From a virus, in the IMG/VR virus record IMGVR_UViG_3300033402_000018: a stretch of 55,764 bases of DNA; one strand, written 5' to 3'. Position numbers and translations under genes: made by a program. Every line of letters begins with the position of its first letter. Position 1 is the first letter of the stretch. Below are positions 2,820 to 36,311 of this stretch, piece by piece. The notes under the pieces are model-generated. The model worked only from the letters and a program-made list of their open reading frames with translations, was not told where the DNA came from and ran no database searches.

Positions 2820-2826
2820 TAGACTC

Positions 2827-3716: not shown

Positions 3717-3722
3717 TAGGGT

Positions 3723-4969: not shown

Positions 4970-5116
4970 CTTCGACCGCAACTACATGCGCCACATTGTG
5001 GAAGAAGAGGAAGAAACGCTGTTCAAACTTCTGCAAGAAGACAAGCCCACCAAATCCTAATTTCTCCAGTATTAAAGCCTTTAGTAGGCGGTATTCCGCC
5101 TTCGAAAGGAACGACT

Positions 5117-5503
5117 ATGTACAAAAGACCCGAAAGAAAGCATAAACCGAACACAGAAAAGTGCCCGTTCTGCGACAAAGATTTCAAACCAATTGATCCG
5201 TGGCGCGAATCACAATGCGTGCTCAACAAGCCGCTCTGGATGGTGATCCCACCCGGCGGCGTCCATCTCGAATGCCCGGTTCACCCCGAGGGACATCATG
5301 TCTTCGGCAGCCCGGTCATCTACATGGATTCTCCTATCCGTGTTCGTGAGAACAACTTACCTGACCCGTTAAACGCGCCGTGGTGCGAGTACGACCGCAC
5401 GAAGTATTCAGGCGGCTGCACCTACGATCACGATTCCAGCAAGGATTTGACGTTCGATTCCACCAAACCCTTCGGAACCACGACAGGCTCGAATTGGCGG
5501 TAA
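5117..5503 (+). CDS. hypothetical protein
   Basis: 128 aa ORF, Cys/His-containing N-terminus (CPFCDK). Confidence 0.4.
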   Translation: MYKRPERKHKPNTEKCPFCDKDFKPIDPWRESQCVLNKPLWMVIPPGGVHLECPVHPEGHHVFGSPVIYMDSPIRVRENNLPDPLNAPWCEYDRTKYSGGCTYDHDSSKDLTFDSTKPFGTTTGSNWR

Positions 5504-5524
5504 TCTAGGAAAATTTGGTATTAG

Positions 5525-6106
5525 GTGGGCATGAGTCAATATGATCGTGTCTACCTAGACCAATGCTACGCACTCGCCAAGAACAGCACATGTGTGAAGG
5601 CCAAAGTTGGCGCTCAAGTGCGCGGACCCTACGGCGACATGTCTGACCACCTGCTAGGTCAAGGTTTTAACCAATCCCCCAATCCTGAGTTTGCTGACTG
5701 CGGCAAGCTGTGCGCCGGGGGCATCCGCTGCGGCATTAAGTCCGGTACTCGCGCTGAACTCTGTTACGCCGTCCACGCGGAGCAATACGCACTACTTCAG
5801 GCCGGATCGCTCGCGAAAGGGGCCACGATCTATGTCGCTTCCTACGATGACAAAGGCGAGAAACGCCTGAAGAACGCTGAACTCCCGCTGGGGCACCCGA
5901 TGCACGGTTTCTACTGTTCGGTGTGTGCTAGGCTCATCTGGGCTGCGGGAATCGCACGTGTAGTGACGGACGGTGTAAAGGGCCCGGTTGTTCTCAGCCT
6001 GAATGACATCTGGAAGACCTCTTACGGCGTGGCGGACAGTATTGACAAGAAGTACAAATCCTGCGGTTGCGAAGTAGGCAATTGCATCTGTGATATTGAG
6101 ACCTAA
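5525..6106 (+). CDS. cytidine/deoxycytidylate deaminase-fold zinc-binding protein
   Basis: CYAVHAEQYALLQAG (H-A-E zinc/catalytic motif) and downstream YCSVCARLI (PCxxC motif). Confidence 0.55.
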   Translation: MGMSQYDRVYLDQCYALAKNSTCVKAKVGAQVRGPYGDMSDHLLGQGFNQSPNPEFADCGKLCAGGIRCGIKSGTRAELCYAVHAEQYALLQAGSLAKGATIYVASYDDKGEKRLKNAELPLGHPMHGFYCSVCARLIWAAGIARVVTDGVKGPVVLSLNDIWKTSYGVADSIDKKYKSCGCEVGNCICDIET

Positions 6107-6639
6107 TGTCAAACCTCGCTGAACTCAAAGACCTGCCCAAAGAGCGGAAGAAGTATGTCGTTGGCTTCTTGATTGATCCCACGTTGTCTAAGGTGGTGCT
6201 CGTGCGTAAGAACCGACCTGACTATCAACGCGGTCTGCTCAACGGCGTGGGCGGGAAAGTCGGAGACACGATCCTAGACGAAACCACGGAAGAGGCGATG
6301 GCCCGTGAGTTCCAAGAAGAGACGGGTGGGGTTGATCTCAACTGGCGGCGGTTCTTGCACATGATGACACCCCGGTCAGACCTGACATTTTTCTACGCCA
6401 TCGGCAATGTTCACTGTGTCCGAACACAGACCGACGAAGAAGTAGCGGTGTATGACATTTCCGATGTGATGGATCGCTGCGATACGATGCCCAATGTTCG
6501 CTGGTGCATTCAGATGGCACGCTCTATTGAGTTCGGTGAGCACGCGGATTACTTTGAAGTGGCTGAGATTTTGGAGACAGACTTACCAGCGAATTTTCAT
6601 TTCATCCCGGATGCAGCGCTTGAAAAAGAAGACCTATGA
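6106..6639 (+). CDS. NUDIX hydrolase
   Basis: Nudix box GGKVGDTILDETTEEAMAREFQEETG (GX5EX7REUXEEXGU). Confidence 0.8.
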   Translation: MSNLAELKDLPKERKKYVVGFLIDPTLSKVVLVRKNRPDYQRGLLNGVGGKVGDTILDETTEEAMAREFQEETGGVDLNWRRFLHMMTPRSDLTFFYAIGNVHCVRTQTDEEVAVYDISDVMDRCDTMPNVRWCIQMARSIEFGEHADYFEVAEILETDLPANFHFIPDAALEKEDL

Positions 6640-7574
6640 ACATTGAATCGAAACTGATACTTGCCAGCAAGAGCGAAGCAACAGGCATCACCCTTTACAC
6701 GTTTGTGCTCACGTACCCACGTGTCATCCTAGCTGAAGTAAACACGCATCGAATGCTCAGCCGCAACACCGCGTCATCTCGCGCTATTCCAGCCAAGAAA
6801 CAGCGGGAACGCGTGCTTACTGATCCGTTCGTGCCTGTCACAATTGGGGCGAATCAGAAAGGGATGCAGGCTGGTGAAGAGCTTGACGGCTGGCGTCGGT
6901 TTGTTGCGATCAACACGTGGAAACTTGCACGCTACCCAATGGTAGCGGCGTCGTGGGTACTCGACAAGGTTGGTGCGCACAAGCAAGTTGTGAACCGCAT
7001 TGTGGAGCCGTGGACGTTCACGCAGCAAGTTGTGACTTGCACCGACCTGAAGAATGTCTTCAAACTGCGCAACCACAAAGATGCAGAGCCACACTTTCAA
7101 ATCATCGCGAAACAGATGCAGATGCAAGCAGAGTGGGCCGAGAAATGGTTTAACACCCTTTCGTGGAACTCGGAGAACGCGCTTGACCGTAGATTAGAAA
7201 TCAACAACCAACTTGGTGTTGGTACTCTTCAGGTGCTAAAGCCGGGGGAGTGGCACATGCCGTTTGTTGATGAGAAGGACATCACAGACACAATCCTGAA
7301 CTCCATGCTGCATGACAGCACTGACGAATCCCTGAAGAAAATCAGCACAGCACGCTGCGCACGTGTCAGCTACTTTCTACCGGAGAGCGGCAAAAGGTCT
7401 GACCCTAAGCGTGACGTAGAGCTTTGCAATAAACTGTCCGGCTCCGGTCATTGGAGTCCGTTCGAGCACGTAGCCACGCCGACAAAAGAAGCGGATTACA
7501 TTGGCAATTTTAAGGGCTGGAAGCAGTATCGTAAAGAGTATCCGCAAGAGTCTGGAGGGGACCGTGGGAATTGA
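6636..7574 (+). CDS. thyX: flavin-dependent thymidylate synthase ThyX-like
   Basis: HRMLSRNTASSRA matches the ThyX RHRxxSxxxxSxR signature; size 312 aa. Confidence 0.6.
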   Translation: MNIESKLILASKSEATGITLYTFVLTYPRVILAEVNTHRMLSRNTASSRAIPAKKQRERVLTDPFVPVTIGANQKGMQAGEELDGWRRFVAINTWKLARYPMVAASWVLDKVGAHKQVVNRIVEPWTFTQQVVTCTDLKNVFKLRNHKDAEPHFQIIAKQMQMQAEWAEKWFNTLSWNSENALDRRLEINNQLGVGTLQVLKPGEWHMPFVDEKDITDTILNSMLHDSTDESLKKISTARCARVSYFLPESGKRSDPKRDVELCNKLSGSGHWSPFEHVATPTKEADYIGNFKGWKQYRKEYPQESGGDRGN

Positions 7575-7608
7575 AGGCTGGGGCAGATCATTTGGGGCGA
7601 TTCAAGCG

Positions 7609-8094
7609 ATGGAGAAACGCCTTGCGAAGCAGCGCGAGTGGGACATCTACTACCTGAACATGGCCCGTTACGTCTCCACGAAGTCGAAGGACCCAAGCAC
7701 GCAAACCGGAGCGTGCATCGTGCGCCCGGACAACTCTTTGTGTTCCATTGGCTTCAACGGCTTCCCCAAAGGCATGAATGACGCCCCGGAGCTTTACGCC
7801 AACCGTGATGTAAAGTATTCTCGCACAGTGCATTGCGAAGTCAATGCCGAAATCTTCACCAGAGAAGACCTGAAGGGGTTTACGCTTTACACGTGGCCTT
7901 TCTCATCTTGCGACCGTTGCGCGGTGACGATGATTCAGGCGGGAATTGCACGTTTTGTGTTTCCAACCATGCCGCCAGAGAAGGCGTCCCGTTGGGCTGA
8001 AAACATGGCGATAGCGCAAGGCTACATGCGGGAAGCTGGGCGGGAAGTGGTTGAGATACCGTATGAACAGATTCCCAAGGTTGTGCTAGAATAA
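7609..8094 (+). CDS. dCMP deaminase (ComEB-like)
   Basis: HCEVNAE and SCDRCAVTMIQAGI motifs (HAE / PCxxC); start placed at first ATG after upstream stop (alternative GTG ~7563). Confidence 0.7.
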   Translation: MEKRLAKQREWDIYYLNMARYVSTKSKDPSTQTGACIVRPDNSLCSIGFNGFPKGMNDAPELYANRDVKYSRTVHCEVNAEIFTREDLKGFTLYTWPFSSCDRCAVTMIQAGIARFVFPTMPPEKASRWAENMAIAQGYMREAGREVVEIPYEQIPKVVLE

Positions 8095-8099
8095 ACGAT

Positions 8100-9131
8100 A
8101 TGGCTAAAAAACAGGTTCGAACAACGCGTAAGGAAGATAAGCCGAGACCGTACAAGGTCGATTATTTCGAAGAGAACGAAATGATCGACAACGACAAGGC
8201 GTTGGTCCGTAGCCGTGTCGTCCGCGCCGTTACGTCTGCGCAGGCGTCCAATCTTGTGATGCTCGAAGATGGGTGGGAATCGCGTAACCGATTTATTGTT
8301 CGTGCGTCTCGCTTTTATGGGGAGTTGAAACAAGCGCAGGAAAACAAGTACGTCCCCGTTGAAGACCTGTTCCCTGAAAAGAAGGCACTCGATGTCATGG
8401 CGAACATCGAGGTTATCCGCGCCGCCGCTAAATCCCGTACAGCCGCTCCCGTAGCGCCAGCCACTCCAGTTGCATCAAGCAACACGTGCCGCTGGCATGG
8501 CGATCAGTACCTTGATGCTTCAGGTCGTTGCACGCGTCTTGACCCATCCTTCATGTCTGCGGTGTGCGCTCCGTCTGTGCCTACGTCGGGGCCGGACAGT
8601 CAGGCAACCAAGGATGTCATGGCGGATTTCAATGGCATGATGTCTCATGACGAGCACGAACAGAGAATGGACAACTTCGTGCCGGACATCACGCCGGGAC
8701 TAAGAACTTCACAGTACCAAGCCGCAACGGGAAACAAGACTCCAATCGTTCGGACAGCGGACGGGCAACTTGGTGTGCTTACTCCGAGCCTTTCGTTCCC
8801 CGACAAGCCAGTGGTGCCTACACAGCCAGCCGTGTTTGACGGTGACGAGCACCACATTGATCTGGACGAGTGCGCACCAGTGATTCATCCCGCGCCGGAC
8901 GCGGGCTGTTCATGTGAGCCGCACGGCGAGACTGATCCAAGCTGTGTGGAACACGGCATTACAGCGCCGCCGATTGACACAACGGGTCAGGTGCTCACAT
9001 CTATGGGTACTTCGGCTCCATGGCAAACCCCGGACGACCCGCTCCCTACGTGGGCGAAGGTGCTCCTATTCGGGGGTGCGGCATTCTTCGCAGTGGTGAT
9101 AGCACTCGCAGTCCTGAAGTGTGGACATTAA
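8100..9131 (+). CDS. hypothetical membrane-anchored protein (Ala/Pro/Thr-rich, C-terminal TM helix)
   Basis: 343 aa; C-terminal LLFGGAAFFAVVIALAVL hydrophobic helix. Confidence 0.5.
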   Translation: MAKKQVRTTRKEDKPRPYKVDYFEENEMIDNDKALVRSRVVRAVTSAQASNLVMLEDGWESRNRFIVRASRFYGELKQAQENKYVPVEDLFPEKKALDVMANIEVIRAAAKSRTAAPVAPATPVASSNTCRWHGDQYLDASGRCTRLDPSFMSAVCAPSVPTSGPDSQATKDVMADFNGMMSHDEHEQRMDNFVPDITPGLRTSQYQAATGNKTPIVRTADGQLGVLTPSLSFPDKPVVPTQPAVFDGDEHHIDLDECAPVIHPAPDAGCSCEPHGETDPSCVEHGITAPPIDTTGQVLTSMGTSAPWQTPDDPLPTWAKVLLFGGAAFFAVVIALAVLKCGH

Positions 9132-9219
9132 ACAAGTGGGTCAATGACCACTTGTTCGAGTTGGTAATTGCGTTGTTGGTTTTGCCCGTGGTTATTGCGT
9201 ATCTTTTCGGTCATCACTG

Positions 9220-9426
9220 ATGGAACAGCACTACTGCCAACGAATCCCAAAGCCGGGGCCAAACACGCTTTCTCTGACCTCCATAGAAGGCGACCCGGAC
9301 GCCTGTGGTAAGATCGCGCACTTCAAATACAGACCAGAGGACCCATACGATGTCTTTGAGCCGGACAAAGTTTGGTGGTTGTGTGCGGAGTGCTATGATT
9401 TTGCCATGATCTTCGACAAATTCTAA
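9220..9426 (+). CDS. hypothetical protein
   Basis: 68 aa ORF, CxxC motif. Confidence 0.35.
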   Translation: MEQHYCQRIPKPGPNTLSLTSIEGDPDACGKIAHFKYRPEDPYDVFEPDKVWWLCAECYDFAMIFDKF

Positions 9427-9460
9427 ATTTCTAAGATTCTAGCCCTCTTGTAGAGGGCAA

Positions 9461-10027
9461 ATGGTTTATTTCATCATCGAAGCATCGCATCTTTTCCGCG
9501 CCGGGACAAAGTATCAGACCCAGTTTTTCGTGATGGATGTTGTGAATTTCATCCATCGCAAGTTCAGGGGTTTCTGCTCCGGCTGCCCAGAGCCTTGCCC
9601 GGAAATGGTGCCACATGTGATTGTTCTTCACGGCTCTGTTAAGCAGGAACAGGGCGACCGCTATGCCGCCGCGCTCGAACGCCACGGCGTGAAGGTTGTG
9701 CGTATGCGCCCGATTGAGTCGGACAGCGCAGGCAAATGGTTTTTCAAGCCAGCTTGGTACATGCACAAAATGATGGGGACGGACATCCCTGAAGGCTCTG
9801 ATGTTGTTCTGGTGGGGTTTCACAATATCCGCTACCTAAAGTTCCTCGAAAAGTATGCCACTCGATACAACCTGCATGTGGCCGCCTTTCAAACGCCAAG
9901 CGCCAAGCAAGGGATGATGCACGTTCCTGATGAGTTTAAGCCATTACTCAAAAGCGTAATTGACCTTGACATGGATGTCCCCGGCATCAAAGCAGAGTTC
10001 AAGAAAAAGCTCAGTAATAAAGCTTGA
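9461..10027 (+). CDS. hypothetical protein
   Basis: 188 aa ORF following a hairpin; no clear motif. Confidence 0.5.
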   Translation: MVYFIIEASHLFRAGTKYQTQFFVMDVVNFIHRKFRGFCSGCPEPCPEMVPHVIVLHGSVKQEQGDRYAAALERHGVKVVRMRPIESDSAGKWFFKPAWYMHKMMGTDIPEGSDVVLVGFHNIRYLKFLEKYATRYNLHVAAFQTPSAKQGMMHVPDEFKPLLKSVIDLDMDVPGIKAEFKKKLSNKA

Positions 10028-10130
10028 GCGGTTCACGGGCCTAAAGCTTCGTTGGTTAGCACCCCCCGATCTTATGTTCGCTCGCCAGAAGACCGGGAGA
10101 AGATGCAACCCGTGGACCGTCAAGGACTCA

Positions 10131-10515
10131 ATGAACGCTAACGAATACCAGACGCTCGCTGAAGTTACCGAGAGCAAAGATTTTGAAGCAATCGGTAAAC
10201 GCATGTCAACCATCCGTAGCATCCGTCTTCTCCACGCGACAACTTGGCATTTCCAGCGAATGCGGTGAAGTCGCTGACGCACTCAAGAAGCATATCTTCT
10301 ACGGCAAGGAACTGGACGTAGTAAACGTTGCCGAAGAGATCGGCGATATTTGCTGGTATCTGGCGCTCGCTTGCAATGAGCTTGGTATGGCATTCGAGCA
10401 GGACATCTTGGAAGTCAACATCGCCAAGCTGAAGGCCCGTTACGGGGACAAGTTCTCCGAGCACGCGGCCATGCACCGTGACCTCAACAAGGAACGTGCT
10501 ATACTCGAAGGATGA
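10131..10515 (+). pseudogene. mazG: MazG-like nucleoside triphosphate pyrophosphohydrolase interrupted by an apparent +1 frameshift (~10240-10250)
   Basis: Frame 0 encodes MNANEYQTLAEV...IRLLHA (then stop); frame +1 continues LGISSECGEVADALKK...EEIGDICWYLALA...KLKARYGDKF. Fused, this reproduces the MazG RLLHAALGLAGEAGE / EELGDLLW motifs. AAGGA RBS before 10131. Confidence 0.6.
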
Positions 10516-10922
10516 GCACAGTAATTGAGCGCGGCTTCAGCGGCCCCGTTTGCGGAGAATGCGGGTCTGTCCTGCCAGTGGCGGGAGACTACAACCGTGT
10601 TTGTCTGAAGTGCAACCCTGAAAAAGAAATCTACTGGTTTGACGAGCGCGAACTGAGAGTGCTCCGCGAGATGATGGATGCGAAAGAGATGTCGGCGAAG
10701 GCTGTTGTCCGGCATATTTTCCGTCTCGGTCAGATGTGCGATCTATTCATCTCCCAAGGCTATAAGATCAGGTTTGAATCACCTGATGGCGGGGAGACAG
10801 TAGACCCGTTAGCTGGCCCGCCAAAGATGGCAGAGATGCCATACTGCGGCAATCCGCTGTGTCATCGCACGAGCGGCTTAACGATTCATAATCCTGATTG
10901 CCCGGAGTACGAATACAGATGA
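10512..10922 (+). CDS. hypothetical zinc-ribbon protein
   Basis: CGECGSVLP...CLKCNP and C-terminal CGNPLCH...NPDCPEY Cys clusters. Confidence 0.5.
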   Translation: MSTVIERGFSGPVCGECGSVLPVAGDYNRVCLKCNPEKEIYWFDERELRVLREMMDAKEMSAKAVVRHIFRLGQMCDLFISQGYKIRFESPDGGETVDPLAGPPKMAEMPYCGNPLCHRTSGLTIHNPDCPEYEYR

Positions 10923-11052
10923 GCTACAAAGACGACCAACTCGCGTTCAAAGTTATTCTAGGGGTCATCGTTACGATAATCGTTGGCACACTGGTGGTTT
11001 ATGCGACTGCTGGCGCTGTCATTATCCATTTCGTCAAGAAGTTCTGGTAACC

Positions 11053-11253
11053 ATGAAGATCAGGGTTAAAATCACACCCGCACGCTTGGAACGCCTGATG
11101 GCTGGCGAGCCGCTCAATTACGCCGTGGGCAACACGGAAATTGAGATCGTCATGGCAGATGACGTTTTTTCCAAGTTTGATGCGATTTTCGAGAAGATTT
11201 CCAAGATCGTCAACAAGACGGTGGAGAAGATTGAATCCGCAATCCTTAAGTAG
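11053..11253 (+). CDS. hypothetical protein
   Basis: 66 aa ORF. Confidence 0.4.
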   Translation: MKIRVKITPARLERLMAGEPLNYAVGNTEIEIVMADDVFSKFDAIFEKISKIVNKTVEKIESAILK

Positions 11254-11255
11254 GA

Positions 11256-11846
11256 TTGCCCATGCCTCGTTACATCGACATTGACCAAGAGCGTTTGTCC
11301 CACCTTCATGAGGGTTTAGAGCTTCTGGAGATGGTTGACCGTGAAGCAATCGCGGGACTGGACTTGTGCGTTTACGGGATCACCAACAACGCGTCCATTC
11401 TTGATTCCGCTAAAGAAGCCATCGCTGATTCTGAAGAAGTAGCGGAGCAGGACGTAGCCCTTACTGAGATTGCTGTAGCCATTCCGATCTCGTCTGACAC
11501 TATCTACGCGCTGAACGGTTCCGGCATTCGCCTCAGCCGCGAGGATTTTGCATACATGGGTTCCGGTGGTGAAGGTGTCCGCACCATGACTTTCGCTTTC
11601 GCTCACTTCAAATCGACAGTGACCCTGAATTCATTTTCCAAGCTCGCAATTGCTTCGTCTGATTCGTGGCTGGATGATTTCTTGCGTAAGGAAGGCTCCG
11701 GGCAGCAAGCGAAGGTCACTCCCGCTGTTCACCGCACCGAAGAAGCCACAGTTCCCGGCGCTCCCCCGGCACCAGAAATTCCGAAACGTACATCCGTTAT
11801 GGGTGGGCCCCGTCTGGCGTCCTTGATTGACGAATTTCTTGCATGA
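11256..11846 (+). CDS. hypothetical protein
   Basis: 196 aa acidic ORF. Confidence 0.5.
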   Translation: MPMPRYIDIDQERLSHLHEGLELLEMVDREAIAGLDLCVYGITNNASILDSAKEAIADSEEVAEQDVALTEIAVAIPISSDTIYALNGSGIRLSREDFAYMGSGGEGVRTMTFAFAHFKSTVTLNSFSKLAIASSDSWLDDFLRKEGSGQQAKVTPAVHRTEEATVPGAPPAPEIPKRTSVMGGPRLASLIDEFLA

Positions 11847-12298
11847 AACTAACGCGGCAACAGCGTGAGCAACTCCGCATGAAGTTTGGCGGGAAGTGTG
11901 CCTACTGCGGCTGCGATCTTCCTGAAAAAGGCTGGCACGCCGATCATGTTGAGCCTGTCTACCGTGAGTGGTGGAAAAGCACCAAATGGTGGAAAGAAGC
12001 GCACGGCACCAAGTGGTCGGTCAACGAAGCTGGTAACCTTGAGCAACACGCTGTCCCGCTGGAGAAACCGGGGTTCGAGCGCCCGGAAAATGACACACTG
12101 GAGAACCTGTTCCCGTCCTGTGTTCCCTGCAATCTGGACAAGCACGCGAGTCCCTTGGAAGTATGGCGGCAGCAGCTTGAAGGTCGCGTTGATGTATGTC
12201 GTAGAAACTATTCTGCATTCCGCCACGCCGAACGTTTCGGTTTAGTGCAGCAAATCCACAAACCTGTGGTATTCTGGTTTGAGCAATACTCCGGCTAG
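11843..12298 (+). CDS. HNH endonuclease
   Basis: CAYCGCDL...HADHVEPV...NLFPSCVPCNLDK (HNH with zinc-binding Cys pairs); ATGA overlap. Confidence 0.75.
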   Translation: MKLTRQQREQLRMKFGGKCAYCGCDLPEKGWHADHVEPVYREWWKSTKWWKEAHGTKWSVNEAGNLEQHAVPLEKPGFERPENDTLENLFPSCVPCNLDKHASPLEVWRQQLEGRVDVCRRNYSAFRHAERFGLVQQIHKPVVFWFEQYSG

Positions 12299-12351
12299 AC
12301 ATCCCCGAAAATTAAGAGTATCATTCGGTTTAGAACTGGCATCTAACCGAC

Positions 12352-13185
12352 ATGGCGAACAAACCCAGAACCGACTCGCTGGGTGACAGAATGAAGCGCT
12401 ACGAAGCAACCACGCGCTTCCTGTTGCCGCGCCGCACTTACACAATTCTTCGCGTTGATGGTCGTGCGTTCCACACGTGGACTCGCGGGCTTGACCGTCC
12501 CTATGACCGCAACTTCATGGCGTGCATGAACGAAGCCGCGCTCGAACTTTGCCAGCAGATCGCGGGAGCGCAGTTCGCTTACGTGCAGTCCGACGAAATC
12601 AGCCTGTTGGCTGTGGACTTCCTTGACATCAAAACCGAGCCGTGGTTTGAAGGCGGCGTGCAGAAATGGGCCAGCGTCGGCGCATCCATCGCAACGATGG
12701 CGTTCAACAATTGCTTGCTTCGGCTGAAGGGGGCAAACCTCGACGAGTCTGAGCTTAAGATCACCAAGAAGCTCCCGAACGCCACGTTCGACGCCCGCGT
12801 GTTCACCATCCCAGACTTGGTGGAAGTGGAAAATTATTTCGTGTGGCGGCAGCAGGATGCGGAACGCAACTCCGTCACAATGCTGGCGCAGAGCTACGCT
12901 TCCCACAAGCAACTCATGGGGAAAAATCGCGCCGCGCAGCATGAGATCATCCACAAAGCCGGGGACAATTGGGCGAAGCATCCTGTGCGTTTCAAGCATG
13001 GCGCTGTGATCCGCCGTGCCGCTGAAAACGAAGTCTGGACGGAAGTCGGCACCCATCATTTCAACTGGGTTGTGGACGAAGACACCCCAGCCTTCACCAA
13101 AGACCGCGCTTACATCCGTGGTCTGGTTCCTGTTGTTTGGGACAACGACCTTCTGGTCAGAAAGGCGGCAGCGAATGGAGAATAG
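12352..13185 (+). CDS. tRNA(His) guanylyltransferase Thg1-like protein (TLP)
   Basis: DRMKRYE, TILRVDGRAFHTWTRGL, FAYVQSDEISLL match the conserved Thg1 N-terminal palm-domain motifs. Confidence 0.7.
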   Translation: MANKPRTDSLGDRMKRYEATTRFLLPRRTYTILRVDGRAFHTWTRGLDRPYDRNFMACMNEAALELCQQIAGAQFAYVQSDEISLLAVDFLDIKTEPWFEGGVQKWASVGASIATMAFNNCLLRLKGANLDESELKITKKLPNATFDARVFTIPDLVEVENYFVWRQQDAERNSVTMLAQSYASHKQLMGKNRAAQHEIIHKAGDNWAKHPVRFKHGAVIRRAAENEVWTEVGTHHFNWVVDEDTPAFTKDRAYIRGLVPVVWDNDLLVRKAAANGE

Positions 13186-16416: not shown

Positions 16417-19125
16417 ATGCCCTCCCTTCTTCACAAGCTGAGCTTCTTTGACCCCGAGGTCGGACGCTACTTCGTCGTAGCGAGCGACGGTTTTTACTGG
16501 AAAGAAGCCAAAAAATCACCTGAAGACTCCAAGGTTACAAAGCTGCTGGCTCAATACGGCTGGCAACTCCGAAACGGCAATGACGTGTGGTTGATCTTTA
16601 GACGCCCACGGACGCCGGGGGAGTTGTTCGTAATTCGTGGGGAGAAACGCTGGTATTATGATCTCCCAGATTCCGACCTGTTTGACGTAGCGGCGGAGGG
16701 TAGGGGTCTCGACAGCCTTCAACAGGCAATCGAGAGCGGTAAGCTGCCGGGAGCAAAAGCCAAGGGAATGACCGCCAGCCCCACCACAACGGCCGTCAAT
16801 AACGCCGGAAATGGTCACGGCTCCATGCCGGACGACCAGCTTGAACCAGATACCAAGTACGGCATGATGGGCCGACCGGACTACGGTTCCGGGTACACCG
16901 GAATCATGAACGAGTTGAATGCTGAAGATGATGAATGGAGCAAGGAAGCGTCCATTCTGGTTCTGAACGGCAGCGTAAAGATGGGTTCCACGACAGCGGA
17001 AACCTCGCTCTACGTCACAGGAGCGGAGTATCAAGGCTTGACGCTCACCAAGTTTACCTTCAGCCCTGACCGTCACAAGGCAAAGATTTTCCCAAAGCTT
17101 ACCGCGCAGAATCTCAGTCAACAGATTTTCGGTAAGTTCGCCACGGTTGCTCGTGTCGTGCTCGCCGCCGACTATCGCGAGATGTTTAAGGCTACCCTTG
17201 CGCTCGATCCCAAGTACGATAAAGTAATCAACCGTGAAATTGAGTGGGCTAAGCGCGTCCTCAAGAAGCAGGATCGCATCGTATGGTATCTCCGTTGGGT
17301 TCGTTTGGCTTGCGTGCATGACATGCTTGGCAGGGCGCATCTGGACGAGAACCCGGCTGGCGTTACGGCGGCTGCGGCTGCTCCCGCCCCGGCCCCAAAT
17401 CAGCCCCAGCAGCCCGCGCAGCAACAAAAGAAGCCGCAGACACGCACAGAGCAGATCAAAGCGTTGTACCAGCAGTACGACCGCGAGATGACGAATAAGA
17501 GCGGCGGCGGTGAACTTGTCACGCTGACTGACTTGGTTCACATGAAGCAGAGCCTTGAACACTTCTACTCACTGCACTCGCCAGAGATTGACAACTATAG
17601 CCCCAAGTACGAAAGCTGGAATGATCTCTACGGAAAATTCTCCGTGTTCGAGCAGGCTTGGAAGGAAGAAGCCGGGAAAGCACTCAAACCCAAAGAGGGT
17701 GATGAGATTTGGATTCAGTTCCCGGACGGCTGGGCGTGGTGGCATTTGCCACGCGCATCATGCGAAGACGAAGCTGCGGCGATGGGTCACTGCGGAAACT
17801 CACCTAATGCCAAAGCCAAGGGTGTTTCAATTCTCAGTTTGCGTAGACCGATCAAACGCGGCAATGAGACTCGCTGGGAGCCGCATCTAACTTTCATCCT
17901 GCACGGCACTGTGCTGGGCGAGATGAAAGGTAAGGGAAACGACAAGCCAGCGCCACAGTACCACAAGTACATCATCCCTTTGCTGCTGGATAAACGTATC
18001 ACTGGGGTTGGCGGCGGCGGTTATCTCGCAGAGCACAACTTTTCAATGAACGATTTGACGCCGGAACAACGCGCAGAAATCTCCAAGGCGAAGCCATCAA
18101 TGGGTATGAGCCTAAGCGGTTACTATAAAGCCTACGGCATGGACGATACATTAGCCGCCAGAATCAAGGCGATCCTTGGCATGGACTCGGCAACTTATGA
18201 TCCACAGTGGGGTTTTGCCCTGCGTTCGTGGGATACGCGTGAAGATTTCCTCGATGATGTGGGTGATTCCGAAGCATCGAAGGCCGCCACGTTCGTCCAG
18301 ACCGGGGAGCATGACTACGATGACCCAGACATTGACGAGTTGACCGACCTACTGGACGGCTTTGATGAAGTGGAACTGCATAACCTAGGGTTGCAGTTGC
18401 AGTACGATTATCCACGCGAGATGCGTGAGTGGTACGCGAACTTCAATCCAAATGATCGTGACGCGCTTAAGATGGCGCTTACGGACCTGTACAACGCGTA
18501 CATCAAGGGAGCCAAAGCACAGCATTCAAACCAGCGCAAAGGCTTGGAAAAGAAGATCAAAGAACTGGAAGCCAATGTGTCTGAAGACCCGGCGGCAGCG
18601 AACGAAGTTACTCCGCTGAAAGAGAAGCTGAAGAATTTGCGTCTCGATAAAGTCTGGGAGAAAGTTCCAGCACTGCTTGAATTGTATTCTGCTTATTTGT
18701 CAGGCGGGCCCGATCAAAACACAGTGGATAAACTACTGCGTGAAGCGCTCGAACGTGGCGTGGACGAGAGCGGGACTGAGATTCGTCGTACCAAGGACGG
18801 CAAGTGGCTGCAACTTTTGAGCGAAGAACAGGCAGTTGCCGACGCCGAAGCCGCGCAGAATCGTCACGGCACCGGAGGCTACTATGAGGCCCCGGAAATT
18901 AACGTGAGCATTCCGTATGATTGGGATGAGTTCGATGAAGAACGCGCAAGGGAATCCGCGAAGGAATATTTCAGTCGTCCGCCGAAGCGCCCGGAAGTTG
19001 ATAAGCGGCAGCGCCGTTTGTTCCCGGAACCAAAGACGGAAGAGTCCGCAAAGCGGCACGGAATCACCGTTTCCCATGCAAAGAACCCGCTTCTGCGCCG
19101 CAAGTCGTTAAAAACAAAGGTGTAG
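16417..19125 (+). CDS. large hypothetical protein (902 aa) with low-complexity AAAAPAPAPNQPQQPAQQQKK linker
   Basis: Single uninterrupted 902-aa ORF; no recognised catalytic motif; possibly virion-associated. Confidence 0.6.
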   Translation: MPSLLHKLSFFDPEVGRYFVVASDGFYWKEAKKSPEDSKVTKLLAQYGWQLRNGNDVWLIFRRPRTPGELFVIRGEKRWYYDLPDSDLFDVAAEGRGLDSLQQAIESGKLPGAKAKGMTASPTTTAVNNAGNGHGSMPDDQLEPDTKYGMMGRPDYGSGYTGIMNELNAEDDEWSKEASILVLNGSVKMGSTTAETSLYVTGAEYQGLTLTKFTFSPDRHKAKIFPKLTAQNLSQQIFGKFATVARVVLAADYREMFKATLALDPKYDKVINREIEWAKRVLKKQDRIVWYLRWVRLACVHDMLGRAHLDENPAGVTAAAAAPAPAPNQPQQPAQQQKKPQTRTEQIKALYQQYDREMTNKSGGGELVTLTDLVHMKQSLEHFYSLHSPEIDNYSPKYESWNDLYGKFSVFEQAWKEEAGKALKPKEGDEIWIQFPDGWAWWHLPRASCEDEAAAMGHCGNSPNAKAKGVSILSLRRPIKRGNETRWEPHLTFILHGTVLGEMKGKGNDKPAPQYHKYIIPLLLDKRITGVGGGGYLAEHNFSMNDLTPEQRAEISKAKPSMGMSLSGYYKAYGMDDTLAARIKAILGMDSATYDPQWGFALRSWDTREDFLDDVGDSEASKAATFVQTGEHDYDDPDIDELTDLLDGFDEVELHNLGLQLQYDYPREMREWYANFNPNDRDALKMALTDLYNAYIKGAKAQHSNQRKGLEKKIKELEANVSEDPAAANEVTPLKEKLKNLRLDKVWEKVPALLELYSAYLSGGPDQNTVDKLLREALERGVDESGTEIRRTKDGKWLQLLSEEQAVADAEAAQNRHGTGGYYEAPEINVSIPYDWDEFDEERARESAKEYFSRPPKRPEVDKRQRRLFPEPKTEESAKRHGITVSHAKNPLLRRKSLKTKV

Positions 19126-19168: not shown

Positions 19169-19798
19169 ATGACATTACTCGAACGAGCAATTGAGATCGC
19201 CGTCCACGCCCATGCTGGGCAGATGGACGAAGACGGCTTGCCGCACATCATCCACAGCCTTGAAGTCATGTTCGCTGTGAAACGCCGATTCAGCGGTGAC
19301 CGTTGCCTCGCGCCGATCCTGAAGAAATACACCGAAGAAGAACTACTCATCGCCGCCGTCTTGCACGACACCGTGGAAGATTCCAAGGGTGCGATCACTC
19401 TGGACTACATCAAGTCCGTGTTCGGTGAGAACGTGGCTGAGATCGTAGACAGCGTGACGCGGCGCGGTTTAGGCGAAGGCGAGACGAAAGAGTTTTACCG
19501 GGACTTCATCTATCGCGCCAGACTCAACGAAGGCGGTGCGATCATCAAGCTGAGCGACCTTCACCACAACTTCGGACGCCTGAACAAAATCGCCGCCAGT
19601 AAGAAGAAGTGGCGCGAGAAACTGGAGTTCAAGTACGGAATATCCATCGGCGTCATCACCGACAACATCTCATGGGAGCAAGCATCTTGGAGTGTCCAAC
19701 ACGACGGCCCCCATGCTCACTATTACATTGCTGACCCTAACGGCAAGAAGATCGAAATCCCCGAAGAAGAATTCAATCAGATTTTTGCAAAAAAGTAA
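19169..19798 (+). CDS. (p)ppGpp hydrolase, SpoT/RelA-type HD domain (small alarmone hydrolase-like)
   Basis: AHAGQMDEDGLPHIIHSLEV and AAVLHDTVEDS match the RelA/SpoT hydrolase HD-domain motifs; 209 aa with no synthetase domain. Confidence 0.7.
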   Translation: MTLLERAIEIAVHAHAGQMDEDGLPHIIHSLEVMFAVKRRFSGDRCLAPILKKYTEEELLIAAVLHDTVEDSKGAITLDYIKSVFGENVAEIVDSVTRRGLGEGETKEFYRDFIYRARLNEGGAIIKLSDLHHNFGRLNKIAASKKKWREKLEFKYGISIGVITDNISWEQASWSVQHDGPHAHYYIADPNGKKIEIPEEEFNQIFAKK

Positions 19799-19854: not shown

Positions 19855-21417
19855 ATGATGACACCGCAGGAAGAACGAATTCTCAACGCGGCACGCCAAA
19901 AGATCGAAGAGCAGCAGGAATTGCTCAGACGCCTGACCGCCCCAGCCTACCACCTTGGGATCGTCTGCGGTGTGTATCCGAAGACCGTGGTTGTGGACAC
20001 AGGTTCCCAACTCTTTGAGCTTGACCGCATCGAAGGCGGACCAGACATCAAGGTTGGTCAGGGCGTTGACATTCATCCGCAGACCGGGCAGATCGCCAAA
20101 GTTTCAGACTTCGTTTCCTACGGAAGCACCGGGACGGTATCGCAGATCGACGGCAACATCATCCAGATCAGTGTTCCGTCCGGCCTCATCACCACCGAAT
20201 ATTCGCTCATCCCGGTAAGCATCGGCGACAAGATCGTGATGAACAGCACGAACCACGTCATCATGAAGAAGCTGCCGACCGCGTCGAAGTATGCCTTCAA
20301 GACGAGCGCCGTGCTGGACTGGAAAGACATCGGCGCTTGCGAAGACGCGAAAAAAGAACTTATCGCCGCGCTCGAAACGCCTTACACCGCATCGCCGCTG
20401 TTCAAATTCTTCAACAAGGATCAGATCAAAGGCGCACTACTTTGGGGACGCCCCGGCAACGGCAAGACTTTGCTTGGACGAGCCGCCGCTGGCGCACTGG
20501 CGCGTATGCACGGCGTGGAAGCTAGGGACTCAGGCTTTATCTACATCAAGGGGCCAGAAATCCTTGACAAGTACGTTGGCGAAACTGAATCTCAGATTCG
20601 CGAAGCTTTCGCCTATGCCAAAGCGCACTTCAAGAAACACGGCTATCCGGCTGTCATGTTCGTGGACGAAGCGGACGCCGTAATGATGCGCCGTGGTTCG
20701 CGCACCGCATCCGGCATGGAAATGACCATCGTCCCGCAGTTCCTTTCTGAGATGGACGGCATCGAAGACAGCGGCGTGTTCGTGCTGCTGGCTACCAACC
20801 GTGCGGATACGCTCGATCCGGCAATCATTCGTCCCGGTCGCTGCGACCGCCGCGTCCATGTGGCACCACCCAACAAGCTCAACGCCCCGGAGATTTGGGA
20901 CATTCACATGCGCAAAGTGCCTGTAACTAACGGCGTGAGCAAAGAACAGTTGATCCAGAGCGTGAATGACACGCTGTTCAGCGAGCAATTTCCGCTCTAT
21001 TTGATTGACACGCCCAACGGACGCAAGACGTTCAGCCTTGGGAATCTTGTGTCAGGCGCTATGATCGCGGGAGCCGTGGAACGGGCATCAGCCATTGGCA
21101 TTGACCGTAATCTCATGGCCCTGTGCGGCACAACTCAGCCGACGCAGGATCAGCTTGCAAAGGTTGACCCAAAGAAATTTGACGGTCTCTCGCAAGGGGA
21201 CTTCACCGCCGCGCTTGCCGCCATGCACAAAGAGCAGTACGGCATGAACCATTTCGATGAACTGCGTGAGTTTATCGACATGCAGAAGCTCGAAGTCACG
21301 TCCATTGAGCAATGCCACGATGGGCAAAAGATCGAACGCCCGAAGCCGCAGCCGCGCAAGGAACCAGAGATCATCGGTGTTATTCCAATGCCGACAGGGA
21401 AGAAGTTCGACGCATAA
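19855..21417 (+). CDS. proteasome-associated ATPase family AAA+ protein (Mpa/ARC/PAN-like)
   Basis: N-terminal coiled coil then OB-like region (YHLGIVCGVYPKTVVVDTGSQLFEL). Walker A GRPGNGKT. ARC-specific insertion FIYIKGPEILDKYVGETESQIR (compare Mpa [22 protein letters not shown]). Walker B VMFVDEAD. TIVPQFLSEMDGIE...LLATNRADTLDPAIIRPGRCDRRVHV (compare Mpa TVVPQLLSEIDGVE...ASNREDMIDPAILRPGRLD). Confidence 0.8.
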   Translation: MMTPQEERILNAARQKIEEQQELLRRLTAPAYHLGIVCGVYPKTVVVDTGSQLFELDRIEGGPDIKVGQGVDIHPQTGQIAKVSDFVSYGSTGTVSQIDGNIIQISVPSGLITTEYSLIPVSIGDKIVMNSTNHVIMKKLPTASKYAFKTSAVLDWKDIGACEDAKKELIAALETPYTASPLFKFFNKDQIKGALLWGRPGNGKTLLGRAAAGALARMHGVEARDSGFIYIKGPEILDKYVGETESQIREAFAYAKAHFKKHGYPAVMFVDEADAVMMRRGSRTASGMEMTIVPQFLSEMDGIEDSGVFVLLATNRADTLDPAIIRPGRCDRRVHVAPPNKLNAPEIWDIHMRKVPVTNGVSKEQLIQSVNDTLFSEQFPLYLIDTPNGRKTFSLGNLVSGAMIAGAVERASAIGIDRNLMALCGTTQPTQDQLAKVDPKKFDGLSQGDFTAALAAMHKEQYGMNHFDELREFIDMQKLEVTSIEQCHDGQKIERPKPQPRKEPEIIGVIPMPTGKKFDA

Positions 21418-21426
21418 GGGGAAGTC

Positions 21427-21639
21427 ATGAGCCAGAGACAGATCGAGAGACCGCAAGAGAAAAAGCCACGTCCGGCTGGCAATCAAGGGCCAACACTGGA
21501 TGTCAACATTGACATTGGCGGCGAAGAAGTTGATGACATCTTGCGCGATCTGGATGTGATCGAGCACCCGGAAAAATACTCGCAAGAACAGCGCGATTGC
21601 CAGTGTTTCCGCCCGTCAAGGGGCGGTGGATTCAGATAA
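21427..21639 (+). CDS. small acidic protein, candidate Pup-like (prokaryotic ubiquitin-like) tag
   Basis: 70 aa; disordered basic/Gly N-half then acidic amphipathic segment GGEEVDDILRDLDVIEHPEKY resembling the Pup helix (EETDDLLDEIDDVLEENAEDFVRAY); immediately downstream of the Mpa-like ATPase; C-terminus ends RGGGFR, not a canonical GGQ/GGE. Confidence 0.4.
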   Translation: MSQRQIERPQEKKPRPAGNQGPTLDVNIDIGGEEVDDILRDLDVIEHPEKYSQEQRDCQCFRPSRGGGFR

Positions 21640-21956
21640 TGCAGAAACGAGAGCAAAGACCGTTGCTGCCCGTCAGCAAACGTGGTCAAATCTCGCCGAT
21701 GCAGGTTGAAGTGGCGTCGGCGGACAGCGTGCTGCATGTTCTCGACAGCTACAGGAAGAACCTTGCGGACTTGCTCCGTAAGACAGACGTAGCCGAAAAA
21801 ACGAAAGAATCTCACTGTGACATCAATTGTGAGTGTCCGCCGTGTATTTCCGGCGATTGCTCGAACTGTGTTGTTGACCGATTGAAGAAAACGCGTCAGT
21901 TCGGTGATCCAGCCATTGTTGATGCGTGCAACCAATATCGCGGGGGGAAAATGTGA
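21639..21956 (+). CDS. hypothetical Cys-rich protein
   Basis: TAATG overlap; CDINCECPPCISGDCSNC cluster; ends QYRGGKM. Confidence 0.4.
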   Translation: MQKREQRPLLPVSKRGQISPMQVEVASADSVLHVLDSYRKNLADLLRKTDVAEKTKESHCDINCECPPCISGDCSNCVVDRLKKTRQFGDPAIVDACNQYRGGKM

Positions 21957-22264
21957 ACGAATTTCTCAAACTGGTTTACCTCAGCATTGCGGTTGGTGCG
22001 ATCAGCTTGGTCATCACGAAGAGCCAGATTTTCAATGCCTTTCACGCTTGGCTTGAGAAGCGTTCTCTCTTTCTCGAAGACATGTTATCCTGTCCTTGGT
22101 GTACCAGCCATTGGGTTTCCCTGTTCTTCGTTCTCGTCTACCATCCACTGGTGGTAAACGTCTGGGCACCGCTTGACTACTTCGTGAGTATCATGATTGT
22201 GGTCGCGCTGTCTTCAATAACTGCAAGATTGATCTGGTCGGCGTATAAGCCGATGATGGGATAG
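21926..22264 (+). CDS. small membrane protein
   Basis: Three hydrophobic helices; alternative GTG start ~21953 overlapping the upstream stop. Confidence 0.45.
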   Translation: MQPISRGENVNEFLKLVYLSIAVGAISLVITKSQIFNAFHAWLEKRSLFLEDMLSCPWCTSHWVSLFFVLVYHPLVVNVWAPLDYFVSIMIVVALSSITARLIWSAYKPMMG

Positions 22265-35638: not shown

Positions 35639-35728
35639 GGTGAGTTGGGAGAGTGGTTGATTCCGCTGGTTTGCTAAACCAGAGCACCCGAAAGGGTGCC
35701 ACAGGTTCGAATCCTGTACTCACCGCCA
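35639..35728 (+). tRNA. tRNA-Ser (anticodon GCU)
   Basis: Manual fold: acceptor GGTGAGT/ACTCACC, 3-bp D stem, anticodon stem CTGGT/ACCAG with loop TTGCTAA, long variable hairpin, T arm ACAGG-TTCGAAT-CCTGT, discriminator G, encoded CCA. Confidence 0.75.
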
Positions 35729-35729
35729 T

Positions 35730-35815
35730 GGTAGGTTTGGGCATTGGAAGGCCCACCTGTCTCGAAAACAGGCGACCGAAAGGTCGTAGGAGTTCGACTC
35801 TCCTACCTACCGCCA
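35730..35815 (+). tRNA. tRNA-Ser (anticodon CGA)
   Basis: Acceptor GGTAGGT/ACCTACC, anticodon stem CCTGT/ACAGG with loop CTCGAAA, long variable arm, T arm GGAGTTCGACTCTCC, G discriminator, CCA. Confidence 0.7.
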
Positions 35816-36032
35816 AATTTTAAGCTGGGCGGTGTATGGCACGGATACTTCTCGAAAAAGTAAAAACCCGTGACCGCGATGTTCCCCGGCAAAGTGTAAG
35901 TTCGCAGCGGTGTTGGATACAGTTACTTCGGTTGACTCTCTCAGGGAAACCTGAATGAGGAATAGACTTGGTTCGATCCCAAGCGACCAGCCGTAAGGCT
36001 GGTGTCAACTGTACCGTTTGTTCCCTGCGATT

Positions 36033-36122
36033 GGTGAGTTGGGGGAGTGGTTTAACCCACTTCGTTGGAAGCGAAGCGCACCCGAAAGGGTGCCGTGAGT
36101 TCGAATCTCACACTCACCGCCA
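36033..36122 (+). tRNA. tRNA-Ser (anticodon GGA)
   Basis: Acceptor GGTGAGT/ACTCACC, anticodon stem CTTCG/CGAAG with loop TTGGAAG, long variable hairpin CGCACCCGAAAGGGTGC, T arm GTGAG-TTCGAAT-CTCAC, G discriminator, CCA. Confidence 0.75.
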
Positions 36123-36127
36123 AGTTT

Positions 36128-36213
36128 GGAGAGGTCGGCATTGGCACGCCAAGCGGTCTTGAAAACCGTGATACCGCAAGGTATTGGGAGTTCGATTCTC
36201 CCCTTCTCCGCCA
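36128..36213 (+). tRNA. tRNA-Ser (anticodon UGA)
   Basis: Acceptor GGAGAGG/CTTCTCC (one G-U), anticodon stem GCGGT/ACCGT with loop CTTGAAA, long variable hairpin GATACCGCAAGGTAT, T arm GGGAG-TTCGATT-CTCCC, G discriminator, CCA. Confidence 0.7.
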
Positions 36214-36233
36214 AATTTGCGGCTGTTAAATTT

Positions 36234-36311
36234 GCGGTTGTGGCGAAATAGGCAGAGCGGGGGCCTTAAAAGCCCTGTCATTTGCGGGTTCGAGTCCCGC
36301 CAACCGCACCA
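36234..36311 (+). tRNA. tRNA, anticodon UAA (Leu-type anticodon) with atypical short variable region
   Basis: Acceptor GCGGTTG/CAACCGC, anticodon stem GGGGC/GCCCT with loop CTTAAAA, T arm GCGGG-TTCGAGT-CCCGC, A discriminator, CCA; D stem weak and variable region 7 nt, not type II. Confidence 0.45.

Follow-up and report, generated by a model that had tools for sequence, protein, structure and literature searches.

Does a virus that encodes an ATPase of the proteasomal type also encode a protein tag to go with it? This question is raised by a locus in the IMG/VR virus record IMGVR_UViG_3300033402_000018, of which a stretch of 55,764 nucleotides (nt), below called the window, was analyzed. In this locus the gene of a 520 amino acid (aa) AAA+ ATPase resembling Mpa/ARC is followed by a 70-aa open reading frame (ORF). 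A preliminary description, made from the sequence alone, took the 70-aa product for a candidate Pup-like tag that might retarget host proteins to the host proteasome. Recognition of Pup by Mpa is treated as a speciality of Actinobacteria (and the UBact phyla) and is tied to a dedicated ligase and the 20S proteasome. We found that the two genes belong to a conserved cassette of four, whose other members, a 105-aa ORF with the same docking motif and a gene for a DUF1360 membrane protein, had been overlooked. Our tentative reading, held with a little less than even confidence, is that the small proteins serve as ligase-free Pup-like adaptors which couple the Mpa-type unfoldase to its DUF1360 membrane partner via cysteines.

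The ATPase is of the Mpa/ARC type

Judged by sequence profiles and by its predicted fold, the 520-aa protein is an Mpa/ARC-type ATPase, not FtsH or Cdc48, in agreement with the preliminary description. Pfam recognized only a generic AAA domain (residues 195-336). The best-scoring of 14 NCBIfam families was TIGR03689 pup_AAA ("proteasome ATPase"; 229.1 bits, residues 9-421), followed by CDC48 (170 bits), PAN (155 bits) and FtsH (134 bits), and the score lies far below the equivalog cut-off of TIGR03689 (229.1 vs 504.75 bits). When plain sequence was compared with Protein Data Bank (PDB) chains, the AAA module was about equally close to VAT/p97 D2 and to ARC, and the N-terminal 155 residues alone gave no sequence-level match.

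The AlphaFold2 model, built on 42 homologs (mean predicted local distance difference test, pLDDT, 85.8), begins with a helix at residues 4-27 and two five-stranded barrels; the AAA module comes next, then a helical lid that includes a beta-hairpin, and the tail is disordered. In a Foldseek search of the PDB with this model the top 30 matches were all Mpa of M. tuberculosis (7pxd, 7px9, 5kwa, 5kzf), with E-values down to 6e-33 and about 500 aligned columns that include the N-domain; Rpt subunits ranked next. The N-terminal coiled coil and the oligonucleotide/oligosaccharide-binding (OB)-like region previously read from the sequence are recognizable in the model as helix 4-27, the presumed arm, and two OB barrels, and the TIGR03689 alignment starts as early as residue 9. 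Three residues of the helix (Q20, L24 and L27) are near-invariant in the 42 homologs.

In the alignment of these homologs (A3) residues G198, G201, G203, K204, T205, G242, D271, E272, N315, R326 and R329 are invariant. Since Walker A and B, the K-Y-V-G pore loop, the sensor-1 Asn and the Arg fingers are all kept, the sequence predicts an active translocase. The peptides quoted in the preliminary description (FIYIKGPEILDKYVGETESQIR, TIVPQFLSEMDGIE...RPGRCDRRVHV, EEVDDILRDLDVIEHPEKY and the RGGGFR end of the 70-aa protein) are all present. One of its interpretations had to be corrected: FIYIKGPEILDKYVGE, taken for an ARC-specific helix insertion, is the generic strand and pore-loop-1 segment of classic AAA proteins and aligns equally to VAT/p97 D2. 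Just before this segment there is an insertion of about nine residues, ARMHGVEARDSG, which VAT does not have in the alignment; Mpa/ARC also carry an insertion at this position.

The C-terminus does not contain the GQYL/HbYX motif, whose penultimate Tyr serves 20S docking. Instead, a K-[FYW]-D-A tail is conserved in the closest ATPase subfamily, encoded on contigs of about 450 kb; in the more distant phage members the tail is not conserved.

The longer homologs were examined for natural fusions between ATPase and small protein, and their extra length appears to be an intein or additional N-terminal barrels, not a fusion. One 807-aa homolog (P0096) has an insertion of about 330 residues right after the Walker A lysine, which is intein-like from sequence reading only. 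The 470-aa "proteasome-associated ATPase" of the Brevundimonas phages Strzyga and Polewnik, matched by tblastn, was rejected as a relative of the module: it has a different architecture, since it has neither the helix-OB N-domain nor Cys-tail or DUF1360 neighbours.

Four genes form a conserved cassette

The ATPase and 70-aa ORFs lie where the preliminary description placed them (19855-21417 and 21427-21639). The ATPase stop and the 70-aa ORF are separated by 9 nt (GGGGAAGTC), not four, and this gap holds the ribosome-binding site AAGGGGA. The ATG of the 105-aa ORF overlaps the TAA of the 70-aa ORF (TAATG), and the GTG of the DUF1360 gene overlaps the stop of the 105-aa ORF (ATGTGA), so that the two overlaps of the cassette measure 1-4 nt. 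The range given earlier, 19855-21956, covers the two genes then discussed, both of which are real, but it spans three, and its end belongs to the 105-aa ORF that went unmentioned.

Products of exactly the same lengths (520, 70, 105 and 103 aa) were predicted by independent gene callers in four other assemblies of the same genome, and the ATPase has thousands of homologs and is therefore not a chance ORF. Between positions 19000 and 24600 promoter- and terminator-like sites showed no excess over the shuffled expectation, which is consistent with one transcript, although such a scan is weak evidence. The cassette is best explained as four co-transcribed, translationally coupled genes of a huge-phage-like genome.

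The four-gene cassette is also present in many other phages and in genome bins of candidate-phyla (CPR) bacteria. Relatives of the ATPase with 60-70% identity are encoded on contigs of 447-458 kb and on one of 894 kb (about twice 447 kb), where the local order of genes is unchanged, and further relatives were found in IMG/VR. Complete relatives of about 450 kb are ENA ERZ25039458 contig_66109, JGI Ga0683288_0000021 and GenBank LR756500.1. A DNA similarity search of the locus against 50,697 GenBank phages gave no match. In GenBank LR756500.1, a 462 kb uncultured low-GC huge phage, we observed a compact module at 1628-3357, unannotated in the record, which encodes an ATPase of 376 aa, a protein of 79 aa in which CCGCGC is internal, and a DUF1360 protein of 118 aa (IHCPWCLSHW).

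The small proteins are conserved partners of the ATPase

The 70-aa protein belongs to no database family: scans of Pfam and NCBIfam (at E<=0.1) and of PHROGs gave no match, and a PDB profile search returned no Pup chain. The C-terminal arm of 2-Cys peroxiredoxin appeared in the latter at a sub-significant level (E 0.12) and was treated as chance. When 1.84 billion representative proteins were searched with a profile of the 70-aa family, no Pup or UBact was found; the search retrieved the family itself and two distant members ending in ...GCECW and ...CGCWGE.

The missing database family might suggest that the 70-aa ORF is acidic merely by chance, as the preliminary description had itself considered, or is an artefact of annotation. 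The conservation data already refute this, and we give it practically no weight. There are 33 full-length homologs of 66-70 aa with 55-75% identity, and they lie directly 3' of the ATPase gene in every related contig examined, including five of the loci analyzed here. Their alignment (A2) has 14 invariant columns, among them E46, H47, P48, E49, Y51, Q55, C58, P63 and R70; with two locus sequences added (alignment A1) 13 columns remain invariant. Length, motifs and position are thus all kept, the position even next to ATPases that are only 30-70% identical. From its conservation, we conclude that the 70-aa protein is a real partner of the ATPase.

It consists of a basic, Pro-rich, disordered N-terminus (MSQRQIERPQEKKPRP...), a helix, the motif EHPEKY, a CxC motif and a 10-aa extension ending in GGFR. 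The disordered N-half and the acidic amphipathic segment noticed earlier reappear in the AlphaFold2 model, which is largely disordered (pLDDT 65) and has only two low-confidence helices, at residues 32-46 and 53-57. In the window subfamily the ten residues beyond CxC (F-R-P-S-R-G-G-G-F-R; 21607-21636) have an invariant aromatic-Arg end. This GGFR end resembles the G-x-aromatic-x form of GQYL, and, like the K[FYW]DA tail of the ATPase, the aromatic-Arg end is restricted to the clade of phages of about 450 kb.

A broader family was gathered by synteny, from the ORFs located 3' of ATPase relatives in 80 viral and 80 genome loci. Its members have 60-100 aa and share a K/R-x-x-K-P motif within a basic N-terminus, a V-P-x-V-D-D-x-L-x-x-I/L-D-x-A-L type helix and a C-terminal CxC, which usually closes the chain or has W/F/G after it (for example CGCW, CGCF, CTCW, CGC, CCCC, CCGCGC). 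In the alignment of 36 members (A6) the CxC motif is the single feature common to all; C60 is invariant and C58 occurs in at least 90%, and most sequences end at CxC or CxC[WF]. Only about 2.5% of the background small ORFs from the same loci have such a Cys tail. The window subfamily is atypical of this family in that its CxC is not terminal.

The 105-aa protein is built in a similar way, with a basic N-terminus and then the docking motif V-E-V-x-x-x-D-S-V-L-x-V-L (21705-21749), while a cluster of six cysteines takes the place of the simple tail. Homologs occupy the same position in five related loci (L002, L004, L007, L009 and L010), and hhalign matched the 105-aa type to alignment A6 with a probability of 93.3% across the helix motif.

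The helix resembles that of Pup

Pup consists of a disordered N-terminal threader followed by a helix (residues 21-51) that binds the coiled coil of Mpa in antiparallel orientation, so that the N-terminus of Pup points into the pore (PMC8755798). The organisation of the 70-aa protein, as far as its model goes, appears collinear with this, a disordered N-terminus preceding a central acidic amphipathic helix.

For comparison, genuine Pup was taken from an Actinomycetaceae locus with arc, dop, pup and pafA (L164), and 40 Pup sequences were collected (alignment A7). In hhalign the Cys-tail family (A6) matched them with a probability of 94.5% and a score of 37.8, vp.VddvL..ld.al being aligned to t.vDDLLDEIDeVLEt at the start of the Mpa-binding helix of Pup; the close family of the 70-aa protein (A2) matched with 92.7%. 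Column-shuffled Pup scored 7.8 +/- 1.6 against A6 (maximum 12.1, n=100), and an unrelated archaeal partner family reached a probability of 1.5% against Pup; two less favourable controls are weighed below. Pup (PF05639) was also the only Pfam family matched by more than one of the 36 diverse members (3/36, best E 0.058), and TIGR03687 was matched by one of them (E 0.032), none of these matches, nor any by the window protein, attaining the Pfam or NCBIfam threshold. Taken together, the profile similarity with its controls and the Pfam matches indicate that the Pup resemblance of the helix is real at the profile level.

The C-terminal half of Pup (FVxxYVQKGGQ/E), in which QKGG is invariant in all 40 aligned sequences, has no counterpart in the Cys-tail family, which therefore offers no site for Dop/PafA chemistry. 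None of more than 60 family members has a GGQ/E end; their ends are Cys motifs. The earlier remark that the 70-aa protein does not end in GGQ/GGE consequently extends to the whole family, whose conserved end is CxC(W/F). On these sequence comparisons membership of the 70-aa protein in the Pup family is not supported. Thus, of the candidate Pup-like tag, the organisation and the helix have stood up, and the assignment to the Pup family has not.

Neither ligase nor proteasome was found with the cassette

When 68 selected ORFs of the window, mostly of at least 100 aa, were scanned with Pfam, no Pup ligase and no proteasome subunit came up, as the preliminary description had stated, and in these scans none of dop, pafA, pup or prcAB accompanies the ATPase gene. 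A scan of 2.9 million viral contigs of IMG/VR, made with two conserved peptide patterns from a Pup-ligase alignment, found no relative of Dop/PafA (Pup_ligase), although very divergent ligases could escape such a scan. Next to the ATPase relatives of Chthoniobacterales and Actinomycetaceae the following gene is a Pup_ligase (E 1e-130 to 1e-166; loci L152 and L164 among them). No UBact ORF was present next to the Chthoniobacterales ATPases in the flanks fetched, and NCBIfam scans returned nothing named UBact, the presence of a UBact model in the library being unverified.

These data bear on the original proposal that the 70-aa protein, perhaps after C-terminal processing, is a covalent Pup-like degradation tag which is ligated to host proteins and fed to the proteasome or another protease. 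The Mpa-like ATPase and the Pup-like organisation and helix of the small protein speak for it. So does the situation in seven loci from DPANN archaeal bins (L111, L119, L132, L133, L135, L137 and L144), where the ORF after the ATPase encodes a partner of about 140 aa that ends in ...LEIEVSAVQQGG (...VQQGG) plus 1-15 residues and looks like a diglycine protein of the conjugatable ThiS/MoaD/SAMP type; a pairing of tag and unfoldase may therefore be a general theme of the ATPase clade. The archaeal partners have no Pfam match and by hhalign are unrelated to Pup or to the Cys-tail family. Against a covalent tag stand the Cys-motif ends, the ligase found neither in the window nor in IMG/VR, the missing Pfam/NCBIfam Pup membership, an ATPase without GQYL, and a neighbourhood in which nothing but DUF1360 is conserved. 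Moreover, 20S proteasomes are not known from most hosts of such phages or from CPR bacteria. Since no member ends in GGQ/E and no Dop/PafA relative was found, retargeting of host proteins by a pupylation-like tag is unsupported, and we regard it as very unlikely.

DUF1360 membrane proteins accompany the Cys-tail proteins

The 103-aa product of the fourth gene scores just above the cut-off of Pfam DUF1360 (PF07098; 21.6 bits, cut-off 21) and matches phrog_781, a family with unassigned function (E 7e-6). It has three predicted transmembrane (TM) segments, and the conserved core of its homologs reads G-E-L-x-S-C-P-Y/W-C-x-S-H-W. Among 45 homologs the mean number of Lys plus Arg residues is 4.6 in loop 1 and 3.2 in the C-tail, 0.5 in the N-tail and 0.2 in loop 2. 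This positive-inside count puts CPxC-x-SHW at the cytoplasmic end of TM2, within reach of a cytoplasmic Cys tail.

Gene neighbourhoods were clustered for 47 loci chosen for carrying the DUF1360 motif. Besides the ATPase, only DUF1360, common by selection, was shared by all 47 loci; the next families occurred in at most 11, and no recurring protease, ligase or E1-like gene was found near the ATPase. A small CxC or CC ORF lies between the ATPase and DUF1360 genes in 38 of 43 non-redundant DUF1360-positive loci, and the other five are variants. The association was also seen in 91 non-redundant loci with an N-domain-bearing ATPase: 25 had both a terminal-CxC ORF and DUF1360, eight had DUF1360 only, two had terminal CxC only and 56 had neither (Fisher p=2.4e-13). 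Regular-expression misses (SCPNCMSHW and HCPYCMAHY) account for the two apparent exceptions, and the eight loci include the window's own clade, in which CxC is followed by the extension. The phage-type module of ATPase, CxC tail and DUF1360 was also revealed in CPR-binned contigs (Saccharibacteria and others) and in two Gammaproteobacteria bins. The DUF1360 neighbour is the strongest genomic clue to the function of the cassette.

A possible mechanism and its alternatives

The co-occurrence of terminal CxC with DUF1360 and the translational coupling of the genes favour one machine, and a mechanism can be tentatively proposed. Each small protein would use its acidic amphipathic helix (VPxVDDxLxxLD type) to dock on the coiled-coil arms at the N-terminus of the ATPase, like Pup on Mpa, and its basic Pro/Gly-rich N-terminal tail would be offered to the pore as a threading segment. 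The C-terminus would not be conjugated by a ligase; its Cys motif (CxC in the 70-aa protein, the six-Cys cluster in the 105-aa protein) might engage the cytoplasm-facing CPxC-x-SHW of DUF1360, either by sharing a metal site with it (zinc-clasp-like, from CxC and CxxC, or Fe-S) or by forming a disulfide. As a net effect, the unfoldase would be tethered to the inner membrane, or would pull on a membrane protein or its cargo.

Several observations weigh against this mechanism. Reversed Pup still scored 22 against A6, as a generic helix signal would, and column-shuffled A6 reached the observed score against Pup in 2 of 100 cases; the similarity is limited to about 20 columns of the acidic amphipathic helix and could be convergence or such a generic signal. 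The N-terminal helix of the ATPase has only 24 residues; the Mpa coiled coil is about twice as long. No peptidase partner for the ATPase was found in the clustered neighbourhoods. The conserved 10-residue extension after CxC in the window subfamily is not accounted for, and the conservation of K[FYW]DA at the end of the ATPase may point to a further docking partner. Finally, six viral loci (L039, L043, L045, L046, L049 and L051) have no DUF1360 and encode downstream of the ATPase a small protein with an internal C-x-C-G-x-x-G-C-x-I-G-P-F/M, by its sequence possibly a self-contained metal knuckle. The membrane link is therefore not universal.

The same elements could be arranged differently. 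If the Pup-like protein, recognized by the unfoldase through its helix, were attached via its terminal CxC, by metal or disulfide in place of an isopeptide bond, to DUF1360 or to any CxxC protein, it would act as a reversible Cys-based tag for degradation or extraction at the membrane, and phages and CPR-associated elements would have a ligase-free counterpart of the Pup-Mpa system; we consider this unlikely.

Loci with small Cys proteins and without DUF1360 speak for another idea, in which the small proteins would regulate the ATPase or act on it as pseudo-substrates (plugs, anti-adaptors), and DUF1360 would have a separate role, for example in the timing of lysis or in superinfection exclusion. 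A docking helix and a threading tail can make a disordered protein a competitive inhibitor or timer of an AAA+ unfoldase. The almost perfect co-occurrence of terminal-CxC proteins with DUF1360 and the coupled translation of their genes argue against separate roles, and we judge this explanation improbable.

A metal-handling system has to be considered as well, in which the CxC-tail proteins would be metallochaperones (for Zn, Cu or Fe/Fe-S), exchanging metal with the CPxC of DUF1360 and being remodelled or recycled by the ATPase. Terminal CGC/CxC and CPxC are well-known ligands of soft metals. A-type carriers, which end in CGCGxSF, likewise bind Fe/Fe-S through a C-terminal CGC; the phage has an IscA-like protein of this kind (3723-4046), and an IscU-like protein is encoded in the window too. 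MerT, a comparable small three-pass membrane protein, passes metal to cytosolic Cys pairs. On the other hand, an Mpa-type unfoldase has no precedent in known metal-trafficking systems, the Isc genes lie outside the module in other loci, and a pure chaperone role does not explain the docking helix and the basic N-tail. We judge this possibility, too, improbable, and adaptors linking the unfoldase to DUF1360 remain our preferred, if tentative, reading.

Features of the window

The coordinates of the cassette and of other features are collected in the table. ThyX, dCMP deaminase, Thg1 and the cluster of five tRNA genes are typical of huge phages. No structural genes were seen inside the window, and its viral assignment rests on the relatives (the contigs of 447-458 kb, those in IMG/VR, and LR756500.1). 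A protein with the same start as the 902-aa protein of the window lies 5' of the ATPase in the related locus L001. In L002 a PF17338 GP88 protein occupies roughly the place of the 902-aa protein.

Table. Features of the cassette and of the rest of the window (positions count from the first letter of the window)
Feature	Position	Strand	Remarks
DSP-type phosphatase	1480-2190	+	start of nucleotide/tRNA-metabolism block, 1480-13185, +
HD protein	2187-2819	+	same block
Nucleoside 2-deoxyribosyltransferase-like	2827-3384	+	same block
IscA-type carrier	3723-4046	+	ends ...TCGCGQSFNA; Fe-S_biosyn 9e-22; coordinates by motif
IscU/NifU-like scaffold	4553-4969	+	Pfam NifU_N 8e-53; coordinates by motif
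dCMP deaminase	5525-6106	+	nucleotide/tRNA-metabolism block
NUDIX	6106-6639	+	same block
ThyX	6636-7574	+	same block
Thg1 tRNA-His guanylyltransferase	12352-13185	+	end of block
902-aa protein	16417-19125	+	5' of HD gene; no Pfam or PHROG match
HD-domain gene	19169-19798		5' of cassette
Mpa/ARC-type AAA+ ATPase gene	19855-21417	+	520 aa
N-terminal helix (aa 4-27), presumed coiled-coil arm, then LTAP-x-Y-x-x-G-x-V junction	19864-19935	+	AlphaFold2
OB1 (aa 33-84) and OB2 (aa 89-140), consecutive five-stranded beta-barrels	19951-20274	+	AlphaFold2 strands; covered by Mpa alignments
AAA module	20332-20904	+	Pfam and alignment A3
Walker A GRPGNGKT	20446-20469	+	in AAA module
Pore loop K-Y-V-G	20569-20580	+	in AAA module
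Walker B DE	20665-20670	+	in AAA module
Arg fingers R326/R329	20830-20841	+	in AAA module
C-terminal KFDA	21403-21414	+	protein ends ...GKKFDA, after disordered linker; pLDDT <50
Small partner protein 1 gene	21427-21639	+	70 aa
Docking-type helix (aa 32-46), EEVDDILRDLDVIE	21520-21564	+	resembles Mpa-binding helix of Pup
CxC motif C58-Q-C60	21598-21606	+	alignment A6
Small partner protein 2 gene	21639-21956	+	105 aa; ATG 21639
Cys cluster C-x3-C-x-C-x2-C-x4-C-x2-C of 105-aa protein	21816-21869	+	in place of simple tail
DUF1360 membrane protein gene	21953-22264	+	103 aa; GTG 21953
S-C-P-W-C-T-S-H-W motif of 103-aa protein	22088-22114	+	
NAD-dependent DNA ligase gene	starts 22275		3' of cassette
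Five tRNA genes	35639-36311	+	four tRNA-Ser (gct, cga, gga, tga), tRNA-Leu (taa)
815-aa protein	50013-52460	+	major-vault-protein-like; Pfam MVP_shoulder 3.3e-26, Vault_3 repeat 5.5e-11; no PHROG match

Comparison with known systems

In the searchable literature on DUF1360, phage proteasome-associated ATPases, phage Mpa/Pup and jumbo-phage unfoldases the module is undescribed, and no link of DUF1360 to an Mpa-like ATPase and CxC-tail proteins was found there. The same unfoldase architecture with a Pup-like docking element occurs across huge phages, smaller phages and CPR-binned contigs in which neither ligase nor proteasome was found. If the proposed mechanism is true, it would give a function to DUF1360/phrog_781 and to many hypothetical small phage proteins, would be a natural case of ligase-independent substrate delivery to a proteasomal-type ATPase, and would offer a compact system, its three parts totalling about 700 aa, for tests in E. 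coli. The cassette also bears on the evolution of Pup-like recognition, whether this was inherited or arose by convergence on the coiled coil.

The ATPase and Mpa have their domains in the same order, beginning with the N-terminal helix, continuing with the pair of OB barrels and followed by a single classic AAA module, whose pore loop is of the Ar-Hb-Gly type. The C-terminal region of the ATPase contains a beta-hairpin; Mpa has a beta-grasp domain in that region. The ATPase differs from Mpa in having only 22-25% identity to Mpa chains, in ending in K[FYW]DA instead of GQYL, in having no dop, pafA, pup or prcAB neighbours among the genes found, and in being encoded by phages and CPR-binned contigs.

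The Cys-tail protein is like Pup in its size of about 60-70 aa, in the disordered N-terminal segment followed by an acidic amphipathic helix (vDDxLxEIDxxL) and in the location of its gene beside that of an Mpa-type ATPase. In contrast to Pup it ends in CxC(W/F) or a Cys cluster, no ligase was found for it, and it stays below every family threshold.

The fourth gene is linked to the DUF1360 family by its CPxC-x-SHW core and by a score just above the cut-off. For its putative contact with the small proteins, CxC and CxxC also make up the ligand set of the Hsp33 zinc centre. The zinc clasp between CD4/CD8 and Lck is an intermolecular Zn(Cys)4 site of CxC and CxxC at the cytoplasmic face of a membrane protein (PMC7355011). 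The cassette likewise has CxC on the small proteins and CPxC on DUF1360, predicted on the same side of the membrane, in a motif analogy and not a homology; here it is the membrane protein that carries CxxC (CPxC) and the soluble partner that carries CxC. Set beside these systems, the cassette suggests a Pup-Mpa type of recognition that needs no ligase and combines a cysteine end with a membrane partner.

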